Position numbers and translations under genes: made by a program. DNA of 64,000 nucleotides from a virus, in UHGV virus genome UHGV-0026213. One strand, 5' to 3'. Within the stretch, counting starts at the first letter, position 1. Each line of letters starts with the position of its first letter. The notes beneath the pieces were generated by a model. That model saw nothing but the letters and a program-made list of their open reading frames with translations. It had not been told where the DNA came from and did no database searches. Below, piece by piece: positions 45,565-56,637 of the stretch.

Positions 45565-46218
45565 GTGGAACCATTACGCTTAATGACCAGAACGTTACTG
45601 ATACCTATTCAGGACCTGAAGGTTGGACCGTTGGTCACCTCTAATGGGGAAATTGTTGATTTCGTTAAAGAGGAAAAAATTCTTACGGCGGCTTTTCAAG
45701 AGACGCTTCATCGCTATTATCGCGCAGTACCTTTATCCGGCAGTTTAGATTGTCCGGGTGTGGAGGGGAGTACGTCTGCGTTAATAGCGGAGCATTTAGA
45801 AAAGAAAGGGTTTGGGGTCGGGAAAGGACAGGTTTTTGTAGACACTGCCACACTGAACAAATACCAAAACGACCTAATGTTACAGATAAGGAGATTGCTT
45901 GCCCGTTATGGTCTTTTCTCGATTAATTGTAAGTTTGACGACGTTCGGATGTTAGACCACGGTTTTACTACCACCCTTAAAATCTGTCGTGGTAAAAGAT
46001 TCATACAGTTTACCTGGTGGGTGCCGTCCCTACGTGGTGAGAGAAAAACGGTGGAAGGGTTGTATGGTTGGGCTTTATGGAGCGAAGTTCCAGTAACGAA
46101 GCTCGATGCGATTATTCCACAGCATCGAAACGTTCCACTTAGCAGTTTATTTACTTCTGGTGGGAACACCACGTGGGATGAATTTGTTAAAAACGTTTTA
46201 TCGATAGGGGAACAATAA
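45565..46218 (+). CDS. hypothetical protein
   Basis: Probable GTG start after RBS AAGGAG. Confidence 0.45.
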   Translation: MEPLRLMTRTLLIPIQDLKVGPLVTSNGEIVDFVKEEKILTAAFQETLHRYYRAVPLSGSLDCPGVEGSTSALIAEHLEKKGFGVGKGQVFVDTATLNKYQNDLMLQIRRLLARYGLFSINCKFDDVRMLDHGFTTTLKICRGKRFIQFTWWVPSLRGERKTVEGLYGWALWSEVPVTKLDAIIPQHRNVPLSSLFTSGGNTTWDEFVKNVLSIGEQ

Positions 46219-46694
46219 TGCAGCAGTTAGATATTACCGAAGACAAAATTTCCGCTAAATTTCCTGAATTACGTGAATACGTCAAAGACTTAAATTCGAT
46301 TCGAGAAACGCCAGTCAGAATCACGTTGGCTGTTGAAGACGATATTACACATGGGGTTGCAATCTGGGAGCCGGGGAATCTTATCTATCTGGTAGTGGCC
46401 GAAGGTTCTCGTCGTAGCGGTGTAGGTTCCTTTTTACTGAAATACGTTCAACTTAATTCAGATCGTCAAATGGTGATGTGTCGTGTCCATCCCTCAAACA
46501 TAGACGGGCTGTGTTTCTTTTCCAAAAAAGGCTTCCAAATAGACCGATGGTTTATTGCCAGTGACTCCCGTCGGTATTTTCGTATGACGAACAGTAACGT
46601 TGATTCGTCATACGCCCCGCCGGAAGAAGGATATTTGGTGGATTTTATTGAAAACACCCCCATCTTTCTCTCTGTTGCGGATAAGATTTATTAG
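46218..46694 (+). CDS. GNAT-like acetyltransferase domain protein (tentative)
   Basis: Motif VAEGSRRSGVGSFLL resembles GNAT motif A. Confidence 0.4.
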   Translation: MQQLDITEDKISAKFPELREYVKDLNSIRETPVRITLAVEDDITHGVAIWEPGNLIYLVVAEGSRRSGVGSFLLKYVQLNSDRQMVMCRVHPSNIDGLCFFSKKGFQIDRWFIASDSRRYFRMTNSNVDSSYAPPEEGYLVDFIENTPIFLSVADKIY

Positions 46695-48929: not shown

Positions 48930-50063
48930 ATGTCAACATTAGATTCCGATTTAGAAGTCCTTTGCGATGACTACGATCGTTTGGTCGCGTTAGAATCGCT
49001 TAATGTTAAAGACAATTATCCGGCGGTTGTCGCTATCCGAAAACGGTGGGCTTTAGATGATGTCCACGTTGCGTTGGAGTCTGCAGCGATGATGGAACGC
49101 GCGCAATTTGTTGCGGACACCGAGCCTTACGCAGGGGTAGGTAAAGCGGTCGCACGCGCGACCGGCAGAGCGGTTAAGGGAGTTGGACGCGTTGCTGGAA
49201 AAGCAGCAGTGGCAGGAGCCAAAGCGTCTGGAAAATTCGCAGGTAAACATTCTAAGCAATTGGCCTTACGTTTTATCGACTTCGCGGAAGCCGCCGGTAA
49301 AGAAGTTATTAATGAACTGAAAGAAGCGACGTCCAAAGCATCGTCGTTAGAACGCAAGCTACAGAAGTTAGAAGCACGTTTAAGTTTACTTGGTATCAAG
49401 GACACCTTAAAACCGGTTGACTGTGACACAGGAAGTTGGACAACAAAAGTTTGTTTAGAAGACAAGCCTAACGTAAAAGCATGTATTGAGTTCAGTAAGA
49501 ACCTGAGCGCAATGGATGCGATGGTCAACGAGTATACTGTTAAAACACGTACGTTAATCGGTAAGAGCAAGAAAGTTACCGAGAGCGGTTTGGAGAAAGT
49601 GGGCCGGTCAACGAACTGGGCGATTAAACGAAGCGCAGGACTGTTCGGTATTATCGATCCGTTTAAAACGGTGAAAGCATATCCGTGGCCAGGTAACGTG
49701 GTGGTCGTTGAACACAACAACGGTAAGATTGAGTGGGCGATTGCTCGCGACGGTGATTTTGGCCACACAATCAAATCTCTGAACTTGCACGAAATCGGTT
49801 CAGCACTCGACGCCGTTAGAAACATTATCCGAGCGTTACGTCAGCGTGGTGCGAAACGACGTAGTGTAGGGTATACAGGAATTTATGACGAAATTCAGCG
49901 TATGCGTAAGGAACTTAAGTCGCTTGAAGGGCGGGAGTTACGCGACGCTACCGTACGTTATAAAAACGCACTGCGTTTAGAAGATGCGTTTACTACCTCG
50001 TTAGTGCGCGTTGCGGAAGGGTTACTGGAGTGGTGCAGGTTGTCACTGATTGAGGTTAAATAA
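48930..50063 (+). CDS. hypothetical protein (377 aa)
   Basis: RBS AAAGGA; Ala/Gly/Lys-rich N-terminal region. Confidence 0.5.
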   Translation: MSTLDSDLEVLCDDYDRLVALESLNVKDNYPAVVAIRKRWALDDVHVALESAAMMERAQFVADTEPYAGVGKAVARATGRAVKGVGRVAGKAAVAGAKASGKFAGKHSKQLALRFIDFAEAAGKEVINELKEATSKASSLERKLQKLEARLSLLGIKDTLKPVDCDTGSWTTKVCLEDKPNVKACIEFSKNLSAMDAMVNEYTVKTRTLIGKSKKVTESGLEKVGRSTNWAIKRSAGLFGIIDPFKTVKAYPWPGNVVVVEHNNGKIEWAIARDGDFGHTIKSLNLHEIGSALDAVRNIIRALRQRGAKRRSVGYTGIYDEIQRMRKELKSLEGRELRDATVRYKNALRLEDAFTTSLVRVAEGLLEWCRLSLIEVK

Positions 50064-50530
50064 TGCGTATCACTATTATTCTCAAACCCGACAGTAAATA
50101 CGGAAAGTTATACGGCGACCAGGTACTCAAACTGCACAACATGTTGTTCGCAGAAGAGAAAGTGCGTATTAGTCAGTTAACCGGACGCGACACGTTCAAC
50201 CCCATCGAACACTTAGAAGAGATCTGGCCTCAAGATTATCTCTGTGCGTGTGCGGTGGATGATAACGAACAACTTTTGGGATTTATGACCTTTTCAATAG
50301 GTTCTTGCCAGAAGGACACGTTTGTTTATATTGGGAACTACTATGTGATTCCTGAAGCACGTTCTCAAGGGGTAGGCCGTGCGCTTATGGACAAAGTTCG
50401 TGAATACGGAAAGTCCAAAGGTTGTGGTTGGATGAGTTTGGATGTGCTGGACAACAACGTTAAAGCTATCTCCTTGTATGAGAAAATGGGATTCCGTACC
50501 GAATGCAGGGAAATGATAAAGGAAATCTAA
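50063..50530 (+). CDS. GNAT family N-acetyltransferase
   Basis: Motif A VIPEARSQGVGRALM and downstream AISLYEKMGF. Confidence 0.55.
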   Translation: MRITIILKPDSKYGKLYGDQVLKLHNMLFAEEKVRISQLTGRDTFNPIEHLEEIWPQDYLCACAVDDNEQLLGFMTFSIGSCQKDTFVYIGNYYVIPEARSQGVGRALMDKVREYGKSKGCGWMSLDVLDNNVKAISLYEKMGFRTECREMIKEI

Positions 50531-50531
50531 A

Positions 50532-51164
50532 ATGGCTGCAAGATTAGTACCGTTTCACGACGGGTCTAGATATACTTTTGGTGTAGAGCGTTACGCTGTG
50601 GGTTTTCGTCCTGGTTGGAGAGTGGTACGAATCGATAAGGCGTGTTGGTATTTGCCGACGGGCATTTTTGATTACTTTACACCTGAAGCTTTAACGCGGT
50701 TTGTTTCTCTGGGTTCTCCCACGCAACGTGCTGCGTGGGAAAAGAATATCCGTTGTCGATATTTAGGCAAAACAAGAAACGCCACAGTACGGGCAGTTTA
50801 TCATGTTGGGAGTCGTTGGTTACACGTCGAACCAACACGTCCACGATGTGCAGTGACGCCCTTTAATGGGGAGTACAAAGGTCAGGTATACACAGGGTTG
50901 CATTTTGCTTTTCCAGACAACCCCGATCTTAATTACTTCTTAGCCACCCCGAAAAACGTTACGTTAGCTACGTTCTATAAATACCTTTTGTTCTATCCTG
51001 CGTATGTCGTTGCAGAATTTGAACACAAAGCATTTCCTCTGCCATACGGTAGAGATAGGAGATTAGCAGGATGTTCTATCGAGAACTTCAGCAATACACC
51101 GACGCTCTCCGAAAAGCGACCATCGATGCGGACAACAACCTCAGAGATGTCGTTAGCACTATAG
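50532..51164 (+). CDS. hypothetical protein (3' end overlaps next ORF)
   Basis: 210-codon ORF; 94-nt overlap with downstream ORF suggests the true 3' end or frame may differ. Confidence 0.4.
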   Translation: MAARLVPFHDGSRYTFGVERYAVGFRPGWRVVRIDKACWYLPTGIFDYFTPEALTRFVSLGSPTQRAAWEKNIRCRYLGKTRNATVRAVYHVGSRWLHVEPTRPRCAVTPFNGEYKGQVYTGLHFAFPDNPDLNYFLATPKNVTLATFYKYLLFYPAYVVAEFEHKAFPLPYGRDRRLAGCSIENFSNTPTLSEKRPSMRTTTSEMSLAL

Positions 51165-51442
51165 AACAGTGTTCGGATGTATTGTATGCGGAAACGATTG
51201 AATCACCAACTCACGACGGTGTGAAATCGCTCCAGCTACACGTTTGTAGTAAACACGGTAGTCTGTCGTTAAACTTCCGTGTAGGTTTAGATTATTACAT
51301 GGTTCGTAAGAGCTATTTAAGTTGCGACGGCGACCTCTATCCGGTTGTCTGGAACAACGACTATTCTAAGTTTGTTTATCCGCTTGAAGAACACCGACGC
51401 ACGGTTTATGAATTTGTGAAAGCTGTTCTTGAGGGGTTCTAA
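51071..51442 (+). CDS. hypothetical protein
   Basis: RBS AGGAGA before ATG. Confidence 0.45.
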   Translation: MFYRELQQYTDALRKATIDADNNLRDVVSTIEQCSDVLYAETIESPTHDGVKSLQLHVCSKHGSLSLNFRVGLDYYMVRKSYLSCDGDLYPVVWNNDYSKFVYPLEEHRRTVYEFVKAVLEGF

Positions 51443-52921: not shown

Positions 52922-53281
52922 ATGGCTTACAATCACAATTCCATCGTTCTGGCAAAACGTAAATTCGGTCTTCACTTGTCTTACGTAATTCGTCACTTGA
53001 CCACAAAAGACATTACCCAGCGTGAACTTGCCCAGCTTGCGAAAGTTTCACAACCTGTTATCTCGTCTATTAAGAACGATCACTCAGAACGTTTAAGCTT
53101 GCCGATTATGATGAAAGTTGCTGATGCGATTCGTCTGAAATACCAGATTAGTTTTAATTCCGTTAAGGGTCGTTGCTCAGTAACCGTTCACGTAGAGTCC
53201 GCGTTGGACTACGTTGCAAACACGTCCATTAAACGCACCACGAAGAATGTGCGTTTTATCACTAACACCGCAACGCACTAA
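52922..53281 (+). CDS. XRE-type helix-turn-helix DNA-binding protein
   Basis: ITQRELAQLAKVSQPVISSIKN fits HTH_XRE pattern; promoter motif upstream at 52848. Confidence 0.5.
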   Translation: MAYNHNSIVLAKRKFGLHLSYVIRHLTTKDITQRELAQLAKVSQPVISSIKNDHSERLSLPIMMKVADAIRLKYQISFNSVKGRCSVTVHVESALDYVANTSIKRTTKNVRFITNTATH

Positions 53282-53302
53282 TCAACCTGAAGGAGTATTA
53301 TC

Positions 53303-53974
53303 ATGCCACCGAAAATTGGTAAAACTGTAATTGAAGAAACTGTAAAGAACGAGACTAAAGTTAACGAAGCACAACCGCCTGTGAAAGTTGAGCTTTTACC
53401 CTGCGTTAATGAAATACTCGGGGTGAAATTCTTAACTTTTAGCCCGTATACTGACCTGGTTTTCGAACTTTATCAAGACCAGCCTTTCAACTTATTCACA
53501 CTTGTCTGCACTTATAATGGTGATGTTTTGGCGGTTGCACCTGGTCTCAATAGAGACAAATTACTTACAGGCACGGTTATTACTGAAATTCTTCTTCGGT
53601 TAATGCATAAGTTTGAAGGGCCTGAACTTGACAAAATCGCTGTTAAGTTAGCTGACTTACTAATCACTGCCGCCACCTGGTTGTGTTTTAACCCTTCTAT
53701 CTATTTCCATTTCAGTACAAATATTCTTCACGCCGTAACAGACGACGGTAAAAAGTATCGCATCTTAATTAAGGGTGGGGTGCAACAACCTTTGTTCTCT
53801 AGACAAAACTGCCATATTAAGTTTTCGCCTGACTTGGTAGAAGTTTACGGTCAGCGAGTAGCGGCTGGCCACTACGACGCCCATCTCAGATTTTTCAATT
53901 ACCTGTATGAAAAATTAGGGAAAGCTGGCTTGACACCCAATCTTGCTTTTACAAACTCTGCCCCTTCTGCATGA
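53303..53974 (+). CDS. hypothetical protein
   Basis: RBS AAGGAG; terminator at 53987. Confidence 0.5.
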   Translation: MPPKIGKTVIEETVKNETKVNEAQPPVKVELLPCVNEILGVKFLTFSPYTDLVFELYQDQPFNLFTLVCTYNGDVLAVAPGLNRDKLLTGTVITEILLRLMHKFEGPELDKIAVKLADLLITAATWLCFNPSIYFHFSTNILHAVTDDGKKYRILIKGGVQQPLFSRQNCHIKFSPDLVEVYGQRVAAGHYDAHLRFFNYLYEKLGKAGLTPNLAFTNSAPSA

Positions 53975-53986
53975 TGTTTAATAATT

Positions 53987-54020
53987 GGGGAACTTCGGTT
54001 CCCCTTTCTTTTTTTGTTTT
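53987..54020 (+). terminator. intrinsic terminator (UUCG loop)
   Basis: GGGGAAC-TTCG-GTTCCCC then T-run. Confidence 0.7.
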
Positions 54021-54069
54021 TACAGCTTTAGCGTATTGTTTTGAGACGACCTTTTAAGGAGTAATTAAC

Positions 54070-55068
54070 ATGGCTTTTAGGAAGACTATAGAACGTACCG
54101 CCACGGATTTAACAGTAGGTCGGTTAGCACGTAGAGATATTCGCAACCCTCAACTTCAGGCTTGTTTATCGGGTCCTAACGGTGCTGTGATTCGTGAGGC
54201 GTTGTGCAATAGCGAGCTGAATACGTTCTCTTTACAAAAAGGAAAAACGATCCAAGGGTTTATCATCACAAAACACATTTACGGCGACCCAACGTTACAC
54301 TGCTTGTATATGCATGAAATTGTACCGGGCTGTTTGAACAAACTGAACCTACTACTGGTACTCGACTATACCGGCTTTACGTATCTTAATCGAATCGCCA
54401 GTGGCGTAGAAGAGATCGCTGAGCTTAATGACTTAGGATTTAGACACACCCACACTACGTATCGTTTAGGTACACGCTCGTTATTGGATATCGCTCTACC
54501 AACAAACGTGAAGAACATTTCCGGCGATTTTTATAAAGAGCTAACCACTGCACAACGTGAACAGCTTATGTTGCTTTTGGGTACGAGTGTCGTTGAAAAC
54601 ATCAACGCTGACCCTGTGAGTCGCTCACGTCAAATCATGCCACAAGTCGAAACGTTGGTGGAGTTAGTACGTCATGTCAACCACCACACCTACGTTTGGA
54701 TGGACGGCAACGATGTTGTGGGCGCGGTGCAAGTTAAATTGCGTAATCTTAACGAATGTGAATTAAAAGCCATTGCGGTAAGTGAGACACATCGGGGTCG
54801 TGGTATCGGACGGACTTTATTGTATCGTGCTCTACAAATTGCATCGACAACAGCGGCACCATTAGAGATAGGGTGTTTCAATAACAACCCTGCATTCAGG
54901 CACCTGGCCGTCGAATTATTTAAATTTCGCCCCTACGAATACGAATTTGTTTTAGTGCGTGACGAAAACGTCGTCAGTTGGGAGCGTCAGAAAAATCATG
55001 TCAAATTGGTGTTAGTCGACGAAGTGTCATCGTTACAAGGCGGATATAATGCGGAAACCGATAATTAA
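54070..55068 (+). CDS. protein with C-terminal GNAT acetyltransferase domain
   Basis: Motif VSETHRGRGIGRTLLY in C-terminal third; overlaps Dam gene by 20 nt. Confidence 0.5.
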   Translation: MAFRKTIERTATDLTVGRLARRDIRNPQLQACLSGPNGAVIREALCNSELNTFSLQKGKTIQGFIITKHIYGDPTLHCLYMHEIVPGCLNKLNLLLVLDYTGFTYLNRIASGVEEIAELNDLGFRHTHTTYRLGTRSLLDIALPTNVKNISGDFYKELTTAQREQLMLLLGTSVVENINADPVSRSRQIMPQVETLVELVRHVNHHTYVWMDGNDVVGAVQVKLRNLNECELKAIAVSETHRGRGIGRTLLYRALQIASTTAAPLEIGCFNNNPAFRHLAVELFKFRPYEYEFVLVRDENVVSWERQKNHVKLVLVDEVSSLQGGYNAETDN

Positions 55069-55864
55069 ATGGATGGGTGGGAAAACGCGCGTTTTGGGTG
55101 AATTACAAAAGGTCTTACCTAAACGTACAACCTTTGTAGAACCGTTTGTGGGCGCAGGGTCTGTTTTCCTAAATACGAATTACAGCCGGTATATTCTATC
55201 GGATTCTAACCCCGATTTGATACGCTTACTTTGTGTTGCGCGTGAACAGCCTGAAGAACTGATCGCTGCATCGCAACCGTTGTTCTTAGACGGCAATACC
55301 ACTGTAAAGTATATGGAACGTCGTGAACTGTTTAATAGCGGTAAAACGATGACCGAAGTTGAACGTGCTGCAATGTTTTTATACTTAATGCGTCACGGTT
55401 ATAACGGGATGTGTCGTTATAACAGTAGTGGTGGGTTCAATGTTCCGTTTGGACGTTACCCGAACGGCGTTTATTATCCATTAGAAGAAATTCGGGATTG
55501 GGCTAAACGTTGCGCAGAAGTTGAGTATCTGGAAATTGTTTGTGAGGACTTTCGTTCTGTATTAGCACGGACACCTGAAGATGCCGTGATTTATGCTGAT
55601 CCTCCTTATATTCCGTTATCGGATACCGCGAAACACGCGCAATATCACCGTAAAGAATTCTCACAAACGGACCATCGCGAATTAGCCAAGTTACTACAGC
55701 AGCAGGTGGAACGTGGCAACAGTGTCGTGCTGTCAAATGCGGACACCCTACTCACCCGCGAAATTTATTACGGTTTTGAGTGGCGTAGTATTGAGGTCGG
55801 TCGCTATATGGGTGCGTCTGGTGCCGCTCGGAAAACGGTGACTGAATTACTGGGAGTGCTCTAA
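55049..55864 (+). CDS. dam: Dam-type DNA N6-adenine methyltransferase
   Basis: KWMGGK, EPFVGAGSVFLN, YNGMCRYN, DPPY motifs closely parallel E. coli Dam. Confidence 0.85.
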   Translation: MRKPIIKWMGGKTRVLGELQKVLPKRTTFVEPFVGAGSVFLNTNYSRYILSDSNPDLIRLLCVAREQPEELIAASQPLFLDGNTTVKYMERRELFNSGKTMTEVERAAMFLYLMRHGYNGMCRYNSSGGFNVPFGRYPNGVYYPLEEIRDWAKRCAEVEYLEIVCEDFRSVLARTPEDAVIYADPPYIPLSDTAKHAQYHRKEFSQTDHRELAKLLQQQVERGNSVVLSNADTLLTREIYYGFEWRSIEVGRYMGASGAARKTVTELLGVL

Positions 55865-56637
55865 TGCGCATAGTGGATATCCACGATTATCGTAATGACC
55901 ATTTAGCAATTGGTGTGGACGGGAAAATGGTTTCACTAACCCGTGTACGGAAAGGGTTACTGGAAAAGGACGTCATTCGCGAATCTGAAGATCCGACCTT
56001 TATCATTCTTTCGAACACGAATCAGCTGCAAGGAATCTTCTCCGGCCGCACTGACGGTAAGATTTTCTACATGTCAGCAATCGTTGTGTTTGCGAAGAAG
56101 AACATCAATTTCGCACAACTCAAACGGTTGTTAAATGTGGAGGTGTTTGATATCACCTACCCTGCCAACGACCTAAAACGTCGCGATCAGTTAATGGCGT
56201 TCTTGAGTATGCAACCGACGTCTATCGACTATGAGCTAACGTTTACTGAAAAACCTGAAGTTCGTACCGATTTACCTGATGTAGATGATATTGAATCTCT
56301 AACGTTAGAAGAAACGTTTACGATCCCTAAGGTGGCTAATGTCAGTTTGGATACGTACTGCCTGGGTTTGTTAGCGATTGGGGCTGCCGAAGGGCTGTGC
56401 TGTCGTAAAGACGGTAAAGTTGAAGGTATCTTAGTCTATTCGAAAATCAACGAAAAGACGTTTGCCACCGAAGGTTTCTTCTATAACGACTGTACTTACG
56501 GGAATGCACTCTTAACCACATACTACCGTATTGCGTATTTAAAGGGTGCAACCGTGCGTCTTACTTTTCCATACTCAGCACCTCCAGCAATGTCTGGTGT
56601 TGAAGTAGAAGCATTAACTGGCCATTTTATCTTTTAA
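55864..56637 (+). CDS. hypothetical protein
   Basis: 257-codon ORF coupled to Dam stop. Confidence 0.5.
   Translation: MRIVDIHDYRNDHLAIGVDGKMVSLTRVRKGLLEKDVIRESEDPTFIILSNTNQLQGIFSGRTDGKIFYMSAIVVFAKKNINFAQLKRLLNVEVFDITYPANDLKRRDQLMAFLSMQPTSIDYELTFTEKPEVRTDLPDVDDIESLTLEETFTIPKVANVSLDTYCLGLLAIGAAEGLCCRKDGKVEGILVYSKINEKTFATEGFFYNDCTYGNALLTTYYRIAYLKGATVRLTFPYSAPPAMSGVEVEALTGHFIF

Follow-up and report, generated by a model that had tools for sequence, protein, structure and literature searches.

A gene for a predicted tandem GNAT protein overlapping an orphan Dam-family methyltransferase gene in a new SPN3US-like jumbo phage

The closest described counterpart of the gene pair considered here is that of the Salmonella jumbo phage SPN3US, in which SPN3US_0104 (gp104, a putative GCN5-related N-acetyltransferase) and SPN3US_0105 (a putative DNA adenine methylase) occur in the same order and orientation as in the window, by which we mean the whole 64,000-nucleotide stretch of viral DNA analyzed (UHGV-0026213). 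The two share a syntenic block that extends from a DprA-like gene through the genes after Dam, with the common order DprA-like protein, internal head protein, 155-aa GNAT, thymidylate kinase, HTH protein, 332-aa GNAT and Dam; the same order is also found in Parshik, Wellington and pEa_SNUABM_29. The SPN3US GNAT has the length of the window protein (332 aa), yet is only 30% identical to it, while the Dam proteins are 67.5% identical. In SPN3US an annotated gap of 30 nt separates GNAT from Dam, so that there is no overlap, and Dam is followed by two paralogous genes versus one in the window. The window's three genes (GNAT, Dam and a downstream 257-aa protein) also occur, at 81% DNA identity, in p98232-contig_4 of E. 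coli 98232 (NZ_CP173450.1; 221,873 bp, circular), which is recorded as a plasmid, has jumbo-phage content and represents a species-level lineage other than that of the window. There PGAP names them GNAT family N-acetyltransferase, DNA adenine methylase and hypothetical protein, and the starts overlap like those of the window, but by 8 nt in place of 20 nt. More generally, the order GNAT-Dam-hypothetical protein is kept in Seoulvirus, Machinavirus and Wellingtonvirus, where it is already so annotated in GenBank and RefSeq, and the GNAT-Dam adjacency is kept across at least four genera. In this respect our analysis mainly confirms annotation, the gene pair being conserved and already annotated in SPN3US-like jumbo phages. 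A literature search returned nothing on SPN3US gp104, gp105 or gp106, and nothing specific to the SPN3US-like clade on Dam in Chimalliviridae or on GATC methylation in jumbo phages; it did return one nanopore GATC report, on unrelated Erwinia jumbo phages of a non-Chimalliviridae group.

Outside the jumbo phages, the Dam protein is best compared with E. coli Dam (EcoDam; 2G1P/4RTJ), with which it shares the D12-class fold family and an end-to-end alignment (E 1e-64, 43% identity). The two have in common motif I, the DPPY motif and the GATC-contact residues K9, Y119, N120, R124, P134 and Y138 (EcoDam numbering), whereas the window protein differs in being phage-encoded, in an L122M substitution and in scoring under the equivalog cut-off for EcoDam. 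T4 Dam and P1 Dmt resemble it in being orphan, phage-encoded, GATC-type enzymes without a partner endonuclease, and their proposed roles are anti-restriction and packaging (PMC12707154). However, T4 Dam is distant in sequence (PDB 1YFJ, E 1e-10), and the window enzyme is much nearer to the host Dam. For the GNAT protein the described analogs are the tandem GNATs Legionella VipF (6WQB) and mycobacterial MshD (1OZP), which show 9–13% sequence identity to it.

The window belongs to a new jumbo phage that is SPN3US-like (phiKZ-type) and the host of which is probably Escherichia/Shigella, and its GNAT and Dam genes are probably ordinary accessory genes of this phage that act independently of each other. 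All features of the locus lie on the plus strand. A terminator-like hairpin (53987..54015; GGGGAAC-TTCG-GTTCCCC, with a 7-bp stem including 5 GC pairs, followed by the T-run TTTCTTTTTT) closes the upstream gene (53303-53974) and is likely to mark the 5' boundary of the unit. The ORF of the 332-aa GNAT protein (54070..55068, ATG start), the orthologue of SPN3US_0104, is preceded by a Shine-Dalgarno sequence AAGGAG read directly from the sequence at 54056..54061, 8 nt 5' of the start codon. The Dam gene (55049..55864, ATG start) begins within it in the +1 frame, such that 20 nt (55049..55068) encode both the GNAT C-terminal tail and the Dam N-terminus, and an SD-like AAGGCGGA is positioned 5–12 nt 5' of the Dam ATG. 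The Dam stop codon in turn has one base in common (TAATG) with the ATG of a gene for a 257-aa protein of PHROG 9941, a family of unknown function (55864..56637). Within the overlap the GNAT side is a non-conserved, low-confidence tail (aa 303-332 have pLDDT below 50, and their length differs between relatives), and the Dam side is the conserved N-terminus. The three genes would form a compact, translationally coupled unit starting after the terminator at ~54000, and the 20-nt and 1-nt overlaps probably reflect compact packing and translational coupling rather than a common biochemical pathway. The two overlapping ORFs had been placed correctly in an earlier note made from the same DNA, which did not mention the third coupled gene. 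As to promoters, a T-run followed by TAC (TTTTTAC) that stands after several terminators, including at 54017-54023, was considered and rejected, since it occurs 17 times in the window versus 22 expected, and a sigma-70 promoter scan remained at chance level.

The product of the second gene, 271 aa in length, is a predicted GATC-specific N6-adenine DNA methyltransferase of the Dam family. It matches Pfam PF02086 (3.4e-57; 194.5 bits, cut-off 22) and the TIGR00571 'dam' model (254.2 bits, cut-off 114.85), and aligns with the EcoDam structure 2G1P over aa 3-269 (1.1e-64). These profiles back the earlier note's identification of a Dam-type enzyme, which had been made from the stretches KWMGGK (aa 7-12), FVGAGSVFLN (aa 33-42), YNGMCRYN (aa 118-125) and DPPY (aa 184-187). 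Motif I (F33-V-G-A-G-S38; nt 55145-55162) lies N-terminal to motif IV (D184-P-P-Y187; nt 55598-55609), and both are invariant in a 9-sequence alignment. The EcoDam DNA-contact residues listed above, whose roles are described in PMC4417163, correspond to K7, Y118, N119, R123, P133 and Y137 of the window protein. EcoDam L122, which touches the third base pair, is conservatively replaced by Met121, and Met and Leu alternate at this position within the clade. The protein is a member of the family rather than a strict E. coli Dam equivalog, with 256.9 bits against the 441-bit cut-off of NCBIfam NF008152; because of this score its GATC specificity, which is inferred from the contact residues, is not guaranteed. 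In PADLOC the protein scores best with the 'orphan methyltransferase' model (oMTase, 3.1e-86). No endonuclease or defence-system match was found in Pfam, PHROGs or PADLOC among the neighbours from 52922 to 56637, nor in NCBIfam for the flanking 332-aa and 257-aa proteins; a restriction-enzyme partner for Dam, or a flanking protein fitting a PADLOC defence model, was thus looked for and rejected. Going by homology, we predict an orphan methyltransferase that makes m6A at GATC.

The overlapping ATG at 55049 is the correct Dam start. Eight phage homologues share the stretch M-x-K/R-P/S-I/F-I/L-K-W, which lies ahead of the internal Met9 and whose K-W pair is aligned with K9-W10 of EcoDam. Independent gene callers, including PGAP, also chose overlapping starts in close relatives (20 nt in one sequence, L006, and 8 nt in two others, L007 and L012). 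The RefSeq entries for SPN3US and Asesino begin Dam no earlier than the internal Met and miss the K-W stretch; in SPN3US the annotated start comes 6 codons after the point at which the tblastn match begins. The overlapping start corrects these entries; the omitted lysine is the counterpart of EcoDam K9, a residue involved in recognition of the first base pair.

Dam is the best-conserved gene of the 44–58 kb neighbourhood, with 67.5% identity to SPN3US and 71.8% to Asesino versus 22–65% for its neighbours, and approaches the conservation of the major capsid protein (79–81%). GATC itself is strongly depleted in the window: 155 sites are present against 295 expected (O/E 0.53, z -11), which places it second of 256 tetramers by depletion. 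In eleven stretches from relatives the O/E is 0.20–0.62, and GATC ranks first or second in each. A highly conserved phage Dam is thereby documented beside strong GATC avoidance, a depletion that the earlier note had not recorded. That enterobacteriophages select against GATC is established in the literature, as is the MutH hypothesis put forward to explain it (both cited in PMC5014478). No single model fully explains GATC depletion together with a self-encoded Dam.

Mechanistically, Dam would use S-adenosyl-methionine, bound through FVGAGS, and the DPPY motif to methylate adenine N6 in GATC of the phage DNA. This activity would keep the remaining phage sites fully methylated despite fast replication and probable shielding from the host Dam, and full methylation would then avoid the cleavage that MutH or DpnII/MboI-type enzymes make at un- or hemi-methylated GATC. 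The clade-wide avoidance of GATC points to the same selective pressure. The roles generally given to phage Dam enzymes, anti-restriction or packaging, which the earlier note had also offered, are plausible here. Host Dam, MutH and restriction enzymes should all be shut out of a phage nucleus. SPN3US-like phages are presumed to form such a nucleus, and a chimallin homologue is present in SPN3US (PMC9365700). If MutH and restriction enzymes are also kept out, the protective rationale for Dam becomes weak, and a regulatory or packaging role could be the real one. Why a nucleus-type phage has its own Dam is a fair and testable question, and not a major one.

The reading under which Dam serves regulation or packaging rather than protection, by P1-like, methylation-dependent cleavage at a packaging site or by timing of expression through a few critical GATC sites, appears to us unlikely. 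It draws on the exclusion of restriction enzymes by the nucleus in related phages, on the requirement of the P1 pac site for GATC methylation (PMC12707154), and on the strong purifying selection on Dam, which together with few remaining GATC sites would fit a signalling function. Against it, no significant pac- or oriC-type clustering of GATC sites was seen in the 64 kb, a further difference from the T4 and P1 systems; the tightest clusters were matched in 15–90% of random placements, in what is a weak test because the genome ends or packaging site probably lie outside the window. Moreover, GATC is rarer in intergenic than in coding sequence (1.23 versus 2.52 per kb).

The 332-aa protein upstream of Dam has a predicted tandem-GNAT architecture, with a degenerate N-terminal GNAT-like domain (aa 14-133; 54109..54468) that lacks the Q/RxxGxG/A acetyl-CoA motif and a predicted catalytic C-terminal domain (aa 147-296; 54508..54957). 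The C-terminal GNAT motif that had been noticed earlier is supported by Pfam PF00583, which matches aa 198-280 above its cut-off (1.9e-12; 47.9 bits, cut-off 20.7), and by PF13508 (35 bits, cut-off 27). The consensus Q/R-x-x-G-x-G/A of motif A is found only in this domain, as R242-G-R-G-I-G247 (nt 54793-54810), and G247 does not vary across the family alignment. A profile search against the PDB pairs the domain with the C-terminal domain of VipF (1.4e-7), and the predicted structure displays the GNAT fold, twice in succession along the chain, in a model built from only 8 sequences. The alignments behind the structure predictions are shallow, as few diverse homologues came out of the word-indexed protein search. 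Full-length relatives constitute a tiny phage family, with 7 representatives at E<1e-30 among 1.84 billion. The analysis gives the 'GNAT' two domains and places it in a very small family confined to phages; the tandem architecture was missing from the earlier note. Its nearest structural and sequence neighbours are VipF, RimI, NatD and MshD, which are protein or small-molecule acetyltransferases, whereas the specific NCBIfam equivalog models are missed (26.6 versus 86.4 bits for rimI; 19.8 versus 163.1 for MshD, from which it is thereby set apart). The C-terminal domain would bind acetyl-CoA through RGRGIG and acetylate an amine, most probably on a host or phage protein, and the N-terminal pseudo-GNAT might act as a substrate-binding or scaffold module, by analogy with MshD and VipF. 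The fast divergence of the protein fits an accessory role in host interaction.

The juxtaposition of the two genes raises the alternative that GNAT and Dam, perhaps with the 257-aa protein, constitute a functional module, in which the GNAT would regulate Dam by acetylation or perform a second, Mom-like modification of DNA or nucleotides. Mom of phage Mu, an acyltransferase of the GNAT superfamily that acts on adenine N6, requires Dam for its expression. Mom-type GNATs are known from other jumbo phages (PMC7824862), the adjacency is kept in Seoulvirus, Machinavirus, Wellingtonvirus and the lineage of the window, and the overlapping start and stop codons imply co-translation. However, in the Erskineviruses Asesino, phiEaH2 and Stratton, which hold the closest Dam homologues (71–72% identity), no counterpart of the 332-aa GNAT could be detected at a threshold as lenient as E<=0.01; as these phages possess Dam without the large GNAT, a functional link is not supported. 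The two proteins have evolved at very different rates, with identities to relatives of 30% for the GNAT and 68–72% for Dam, and the overlap itself varies in close relatives, being 20 nt or 8 nt in some and absent from Parshik, pEa_SNUABM_29, Wellington and SPN3US. In addition, Pfam (E<=0.1) and PHROGs (E<=0.01) assign the 332-aa protein to generic acetyltransferase families, with no match to a Mom-type family, and its neighbours named above are enzymes acting on proteins or small molecules. The adjacency in at least four genera and the translational coupling leave some room for a link, but in sum we regard the module as improbable. Of the earlier interpretation, the HMM-supported Dam and C-terminal GNAT identities stand, and the functional connection it implied between Dam and the acetyltransferases is not supported.

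The 257-aa protein encoded after Dam may be a paralogue of the tandem-GNAT protein that has diverged and become inactive. A profile-profile comparison (hhalign) of the two families gave a probability of 75.7% and an E of 2.4e-5 over about 160 columns, whereas the same comparison of the 332-aa family with the neighbouring proteins of 223 aa (53303), 210 aa (50532) and 201 aa (51457) was not significant (E 0.2–0.7). Foldseek matches in BFVD to a 276-aa Kwan protein and a 256-aa phiEaH2 protein, equated by length only with the genes downstream of Dam in those phages, are likewise GNAT-like; the AlphaFold2 model of the 257-aa protein itself is unusable (pLDDT 37). The two genes that flank Dam are the least conserved of the neighbourhood (23–30%). 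Dam would then sit between tandem-GNAT paralogues that evolve fast, of which one seems to be active and one or two inactive. This allows the speculation that GATC methylation is a central vulnerability or signal in the clade and that the flanking paralogues form a Dam-associated module, which might for instance control the activity or localisation of Dam or acetylate MutH, SeqA or another host protein that reads GATC; we give this proposal little credence. That Dam instead supplies the methylase of a restriction-modification or toxin-like system, with the 257-aa protein as nuclease, is extremely improbable: its gene is translationally coupled to Dam, its function is unassigned and its size is close to that of DpnII/MboI-type endonucleases, but it has no Pfam, NCBIfam or PADLOC match, its weak profile link and the length-matched structures point to GNATs, and the gene is duplicated in SPN3US and others and diverges fast.

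The window also encodes two single-domain proteins of the GNAT kind. Both GNAT-like genes, reported earlier from their position at 46218 and 50063, are real. The 158-aa protein (46218..46694) falls below the Pfam Acetyltransf_7 cut-off (22.9 versus 27 bits), but aligns from end to end with PHROG 7861 'acetyltransferase' (1.7e-70) and matches the solved structure 7DQG, a 'putative acetyltransferase' (3.4e-61). The 155-aa GNAT (50063..50530) matches PF00583 (1.4e-19) and is the orthologue of SPN3US YP_009153389, with 47.7% identity to the SPN3US protein and 51.6% to Asesino gp111. Its assignment as a spermidine N-acetyltransferase was rejected (NF053587, 27.8 versus 250 bits). Expression of the SPN3US orthologue yielded no N-acetylspermidine, whereas candidate proteins from the Erwinia phages phiEaH2 and Caitlin did yield it (PMC9992855).

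The Dam-type adenine methyltransferase called in the earlier note from the sequence alone, with its start lying inside the 3' end of a gene for a 332-aa protein with a C-terminal GNAT motif, is borne out by profile searches, as are two further GNAT genes at 46218 and 50063. The Dam gene (55049..55864, + strand) encodes a 271-aa protein that matches the D12 methyltransferase family over aa 8-249 (PF02086, 3.4e-57), aligns end to end with E. coli Dam (EcoDam; PDB 2G1P, 1.1e-64) and passes the TIGR00571 'dam' cut-off; it does not reach the strict NCBIfam equivalog cut-off for E. coli Dam. Motif I (F33-S38) and the DPPY motif (184-187) are invariant in the alignment. In EcoDam the first base pair of GATC is contacted by K9 and Y138, the third by N120, L122 and P134, and the fourth by R124, with Y119 intercalating (PMC4417163). 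The equivalents in the phage protein are, in turn, K7 and Y137; N119, M121 and P133; R123; and Y118. As the other contact residues are retained, and the one substitution among them, L122M, is conservative, with Met and Leu alternating across the phage clade, GATC specificity is the best-supported prediction for this enzyme. No restriction endonuclease-like genes were detected among its neighbors with Pfam or PADLOC, or with NCBIfam for the two flanking proteins, and the top PADLOC model for the protein itself is 'orphan methyltransferase'. Dam is the most conserved gene of its neighborhood, nearly matching the capsid protein.

A second-order Markov model predicts 295 GATC sites for the window, which has 155 (O/E 0.53, z -11); of the 256 tetramers, CTAG alone is more depleted. 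GATC ranks first or second in all eleven stretches taken from Dam-encoding SPN3US-like relatives (SPN3US, Asesino, Parshik, Wellington, pEa_SNUABM_29, phiEaH2, Kwan and metagenomic relatives), with O/E between 0.20 and 0.62. Within the 64-kb window the sites show no clustering, and intergenic DNA is poorer in them than coding DNA. Counter-selection of GATC in enterobacteriophages has long been known, and was attributed to the action of MutH on under-methylated sites (McClelland 1984; Deschavanne and Radman 1991, both as cited in PMC5014478). On the simplest reading, unmethylated GATC is costly to these phages, which would carry fewer sites and methylate the remainder themselves; a regulatory or packaging role is an alternative, on which the clustering check bears. 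Depletion extends to TATG and its complement CATA, which fall within the five lowest-ranking tetramers of the window and of six of the nine relative stretches listed (O/E 0.5-0.7); TATG is nonetheless denser in intergenic than in coding DNA (4.5 versus 2.7 per kb). TATG is a late-promoter element for the non-virion RNA polymerases of phiKZ-type phages.

Several observations favor 55049 as the Dam start: the N-terminal motif M-x-K/R-P/S-I/F-I/L-K-W, which takes in the K9 equivalent, is kept in 8 of 8 phage homologues; the Shine-Dalgarno-like AAGGCGGA lies 5' of the start; and independent gene callers, PGAP among them, place overlapping starts in relatives. The RefSeq starts lie 6 codons (SPN3US; L001, 10000-10818) and 29 codons (Asesino; L002, 9001-9819) downstream of the point where homology begins and omit the conserved K-W (EcoDam K9-W10), so these two genes are probably annotated too short. 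The resulting overlap with the 332-aa GNAT gene (GNAT332; 54070..55068, +) is 20 nt, and the Dam stop codon and the ATG of the following 257-aa gene (55864..56637, +) have one base in common (TAATG). A canonical Shine-Dalgarno-type AAGGAG is found 8 nt 5' of the 54070 ATG, and a GC-rich hairpin with a T-run (53987-54015) lies 3' of the preceding gene. Taken together, these features make the three genes look like a single tightly packed unit. In several intergenic regions of the window such a terminator hairpin and T-run leads directly into TAC(A), giving TTTTTAC (45515, 54017, 57457 and 59551, + strand), with one copy 47 nt 5' of the GNAT332 start; with 17 occurrences against 22 expected, the heptamer shows no overall enrichment, and that it acts as a promoter is no more than a guess.

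The GNAT domain of GNAT332 (PF00583, 1.9e-12) occupies aa 198-280, and the top PDB profile match is the C-terminal domain of the Legionella tandem-GNAT protein VipF (1.4e-7); no specific NCBIfam equivalog was reached. An AlphaFold2 model built from an 8-sequence alignment (pLDDT 78.7, pTM 0.71) has a GNAT-like ordering of secondary structure in two domains, aa 14-133 and aa 147-296, and ends in a tail of low confidence. Foldseek searches of viral models with it returned the orthologues, at a TM of about 0.8, as well as N-myristoyltransferases and FemAB proteins, which are double-GNAT folds. Of the two domains, the C-terminal one alone carries an acetyl-CoA motif (R242-G-R-G-I-G247; G247 invariant). 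We infer that GNAT332 is a protein acetyltransferase, a small-molecule one being less likely, with a putative pseudo-GNAT substrate-binding domain. Full-length relatives are few: seven cluster representatives among 1.84 billion at E<1e-30, all of 315-335 aa, and, in phage records, only 48 SPN3US-like genomes (Seoulvirus, Machinavirus and Wellingtonvirus groups). Its identity to the SPN3US protein is 30%, versus 40-65% for most neighbors, a rapid divergence that would fit a host-interaction accessory protein.

SPN3US_0104 and SPN3US_0105 are the orthologues of the GNAT332-Dam pair, which many GenBank/RefSeq records annotate alike, as does PGAP for the replicon of E. coli 98232; a literature search found no published experimental work on these proteins. 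The earlier note was right on the identities of the proteins; the functional link between Dam and the acetyltransferase that it implied is unsupported. Such a link might be suggested by an adjacency kept in at least four genera and by translational coupling of the two genes, but the Erskinevirus phages Asesino, phiEaH2 and Stratton encode the closest Dam homologues and have no large GNAT detectable even at E<=0.01. The overlap varies, being likewise 20 nt in the related locus L006, 8 nt in L007 and the E. coli 98232 replicon (L012), and absent from Parshik, pEa_SNUABM_29, Wellington and SPN3US. Moreover, the overlapped GNAT332 tail is non-conserved and of low model confidence, the two proteins differ sharply in conservation, and GNAT332 has no similarity to Mom-type DNA acyltransferases in Pfam or PHROGs. 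On these grounds we conclude that the overlap reflects compact packing and is not a sign of a common pathway.

Among 50,697 phage records there is no close DNA match to this region, the single match being 122 nt at 81% identity within the Dam gene of Erwinia phage Asesino. At the protein level the region has the gene order of Salmonella phage SPN3US: in both, a DprA-like protein is followed by an internal head protein, the 155-aa GNAT, thymidylate kinase, an HTH protein, the 332-aa GNAT, Dam and hypothetical genes. Genes for a DNA polymerase, a DnaB-like helicase and a phiKZ-type major head protein, the last with 79-81% identity to those of Seoulvirus and Asesino, are present in the window too. 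Close relatives include a metagenome scaffold of 225 kb from ENA (95% identity in GNAT, 100% in Dam), Logan contigs and records that bear the names of E. coli and Shigella sonnei assemblies; a circular 'plasmid' of E. coli strain 98232 (221,873 bp) shows 81% DNA identity across the GNAT332, Dam and 257-aa genes. The host is therefore most likely Escherichia/Shigella. As SPN3US has a diverged chimallin homologue (PMC9365700), relatedness to SPN3US-like phages suggests that this phage may form a nucleus. The E. coli 98232 replicon (NZ_CP173450.1, p98232-contig_4), with the identical GNAT-Dam-257aa gene order, is an apparent jumbo-phage genome related to the window and listed as a plasmid in the complete genome of a urine isolate; it could represent a carrier state, pseudolysogeny or contamination.

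The 257-aa protein, whose gene is translationally coupled to Dam, belongs to PHROG 9941 and received no family assignment from Pfam, NCBIfam or PADLOC; its AlphaFold2 model is poor (pLDDT 37). SPN3US, Asesino, Parshik and Wellington each carry the gene in two copies. In an hhalign comparison (probability 75.7%, E 2.4e-5), its family aligns with the 332-aa family along some 160 columns that cover the first GNAT332 domain and reach the start of the second. Among the proteins that Foldseek matched to the GNAT332 model are one of 276 aa from Kwan and one of 256 aa from phiEaH2, identified by length only with the genes just 3' of Dam in those phages. These two observations make it plausible but unproven that the 257-aa protein is a diverged, probably inactive tandem-GNAT paralogue. 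The 223-aa protein upstream (53303-53974) had no family match; its stretch FTLVCTYNGDVLAVAPGLNRDKL resembles the PTLHCLYMHEIVPGCLNKLNL segment in the N-terminal domain of GNAT332, a likeness that is not significant (hhalign E 0.29). Farther upstream, two ORFs of unknown function (50532-51164 and 51071-51442) overlap by 94 nt in different frames, and SPN3US and Asesino annotations show a like arrangement with a 55-nt overlap.

The gene at 46218..46694 encodes a 158-aa protein assigned to PHROG 7861 'acetyltransferase' (1.7e-70), with the 'putative acetyltransferase' PDB 7DQG as a close solved homologue (3.4e-61); it falls below the Pfam GNAT cut-offs. The gene at 50063..50530 encodes the 155-aa GNAT protein (PF00583, 1.4e-19), an orthologue of SPN3US YP_009153389 (47.7% identity). 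The latter, a candidate spermidine N-acetyltransferase, gave no N-acetylspermidine when tested, and the candidates of Erwinia phages phiEaH2 and Caitlin produced it (PMC9992855).
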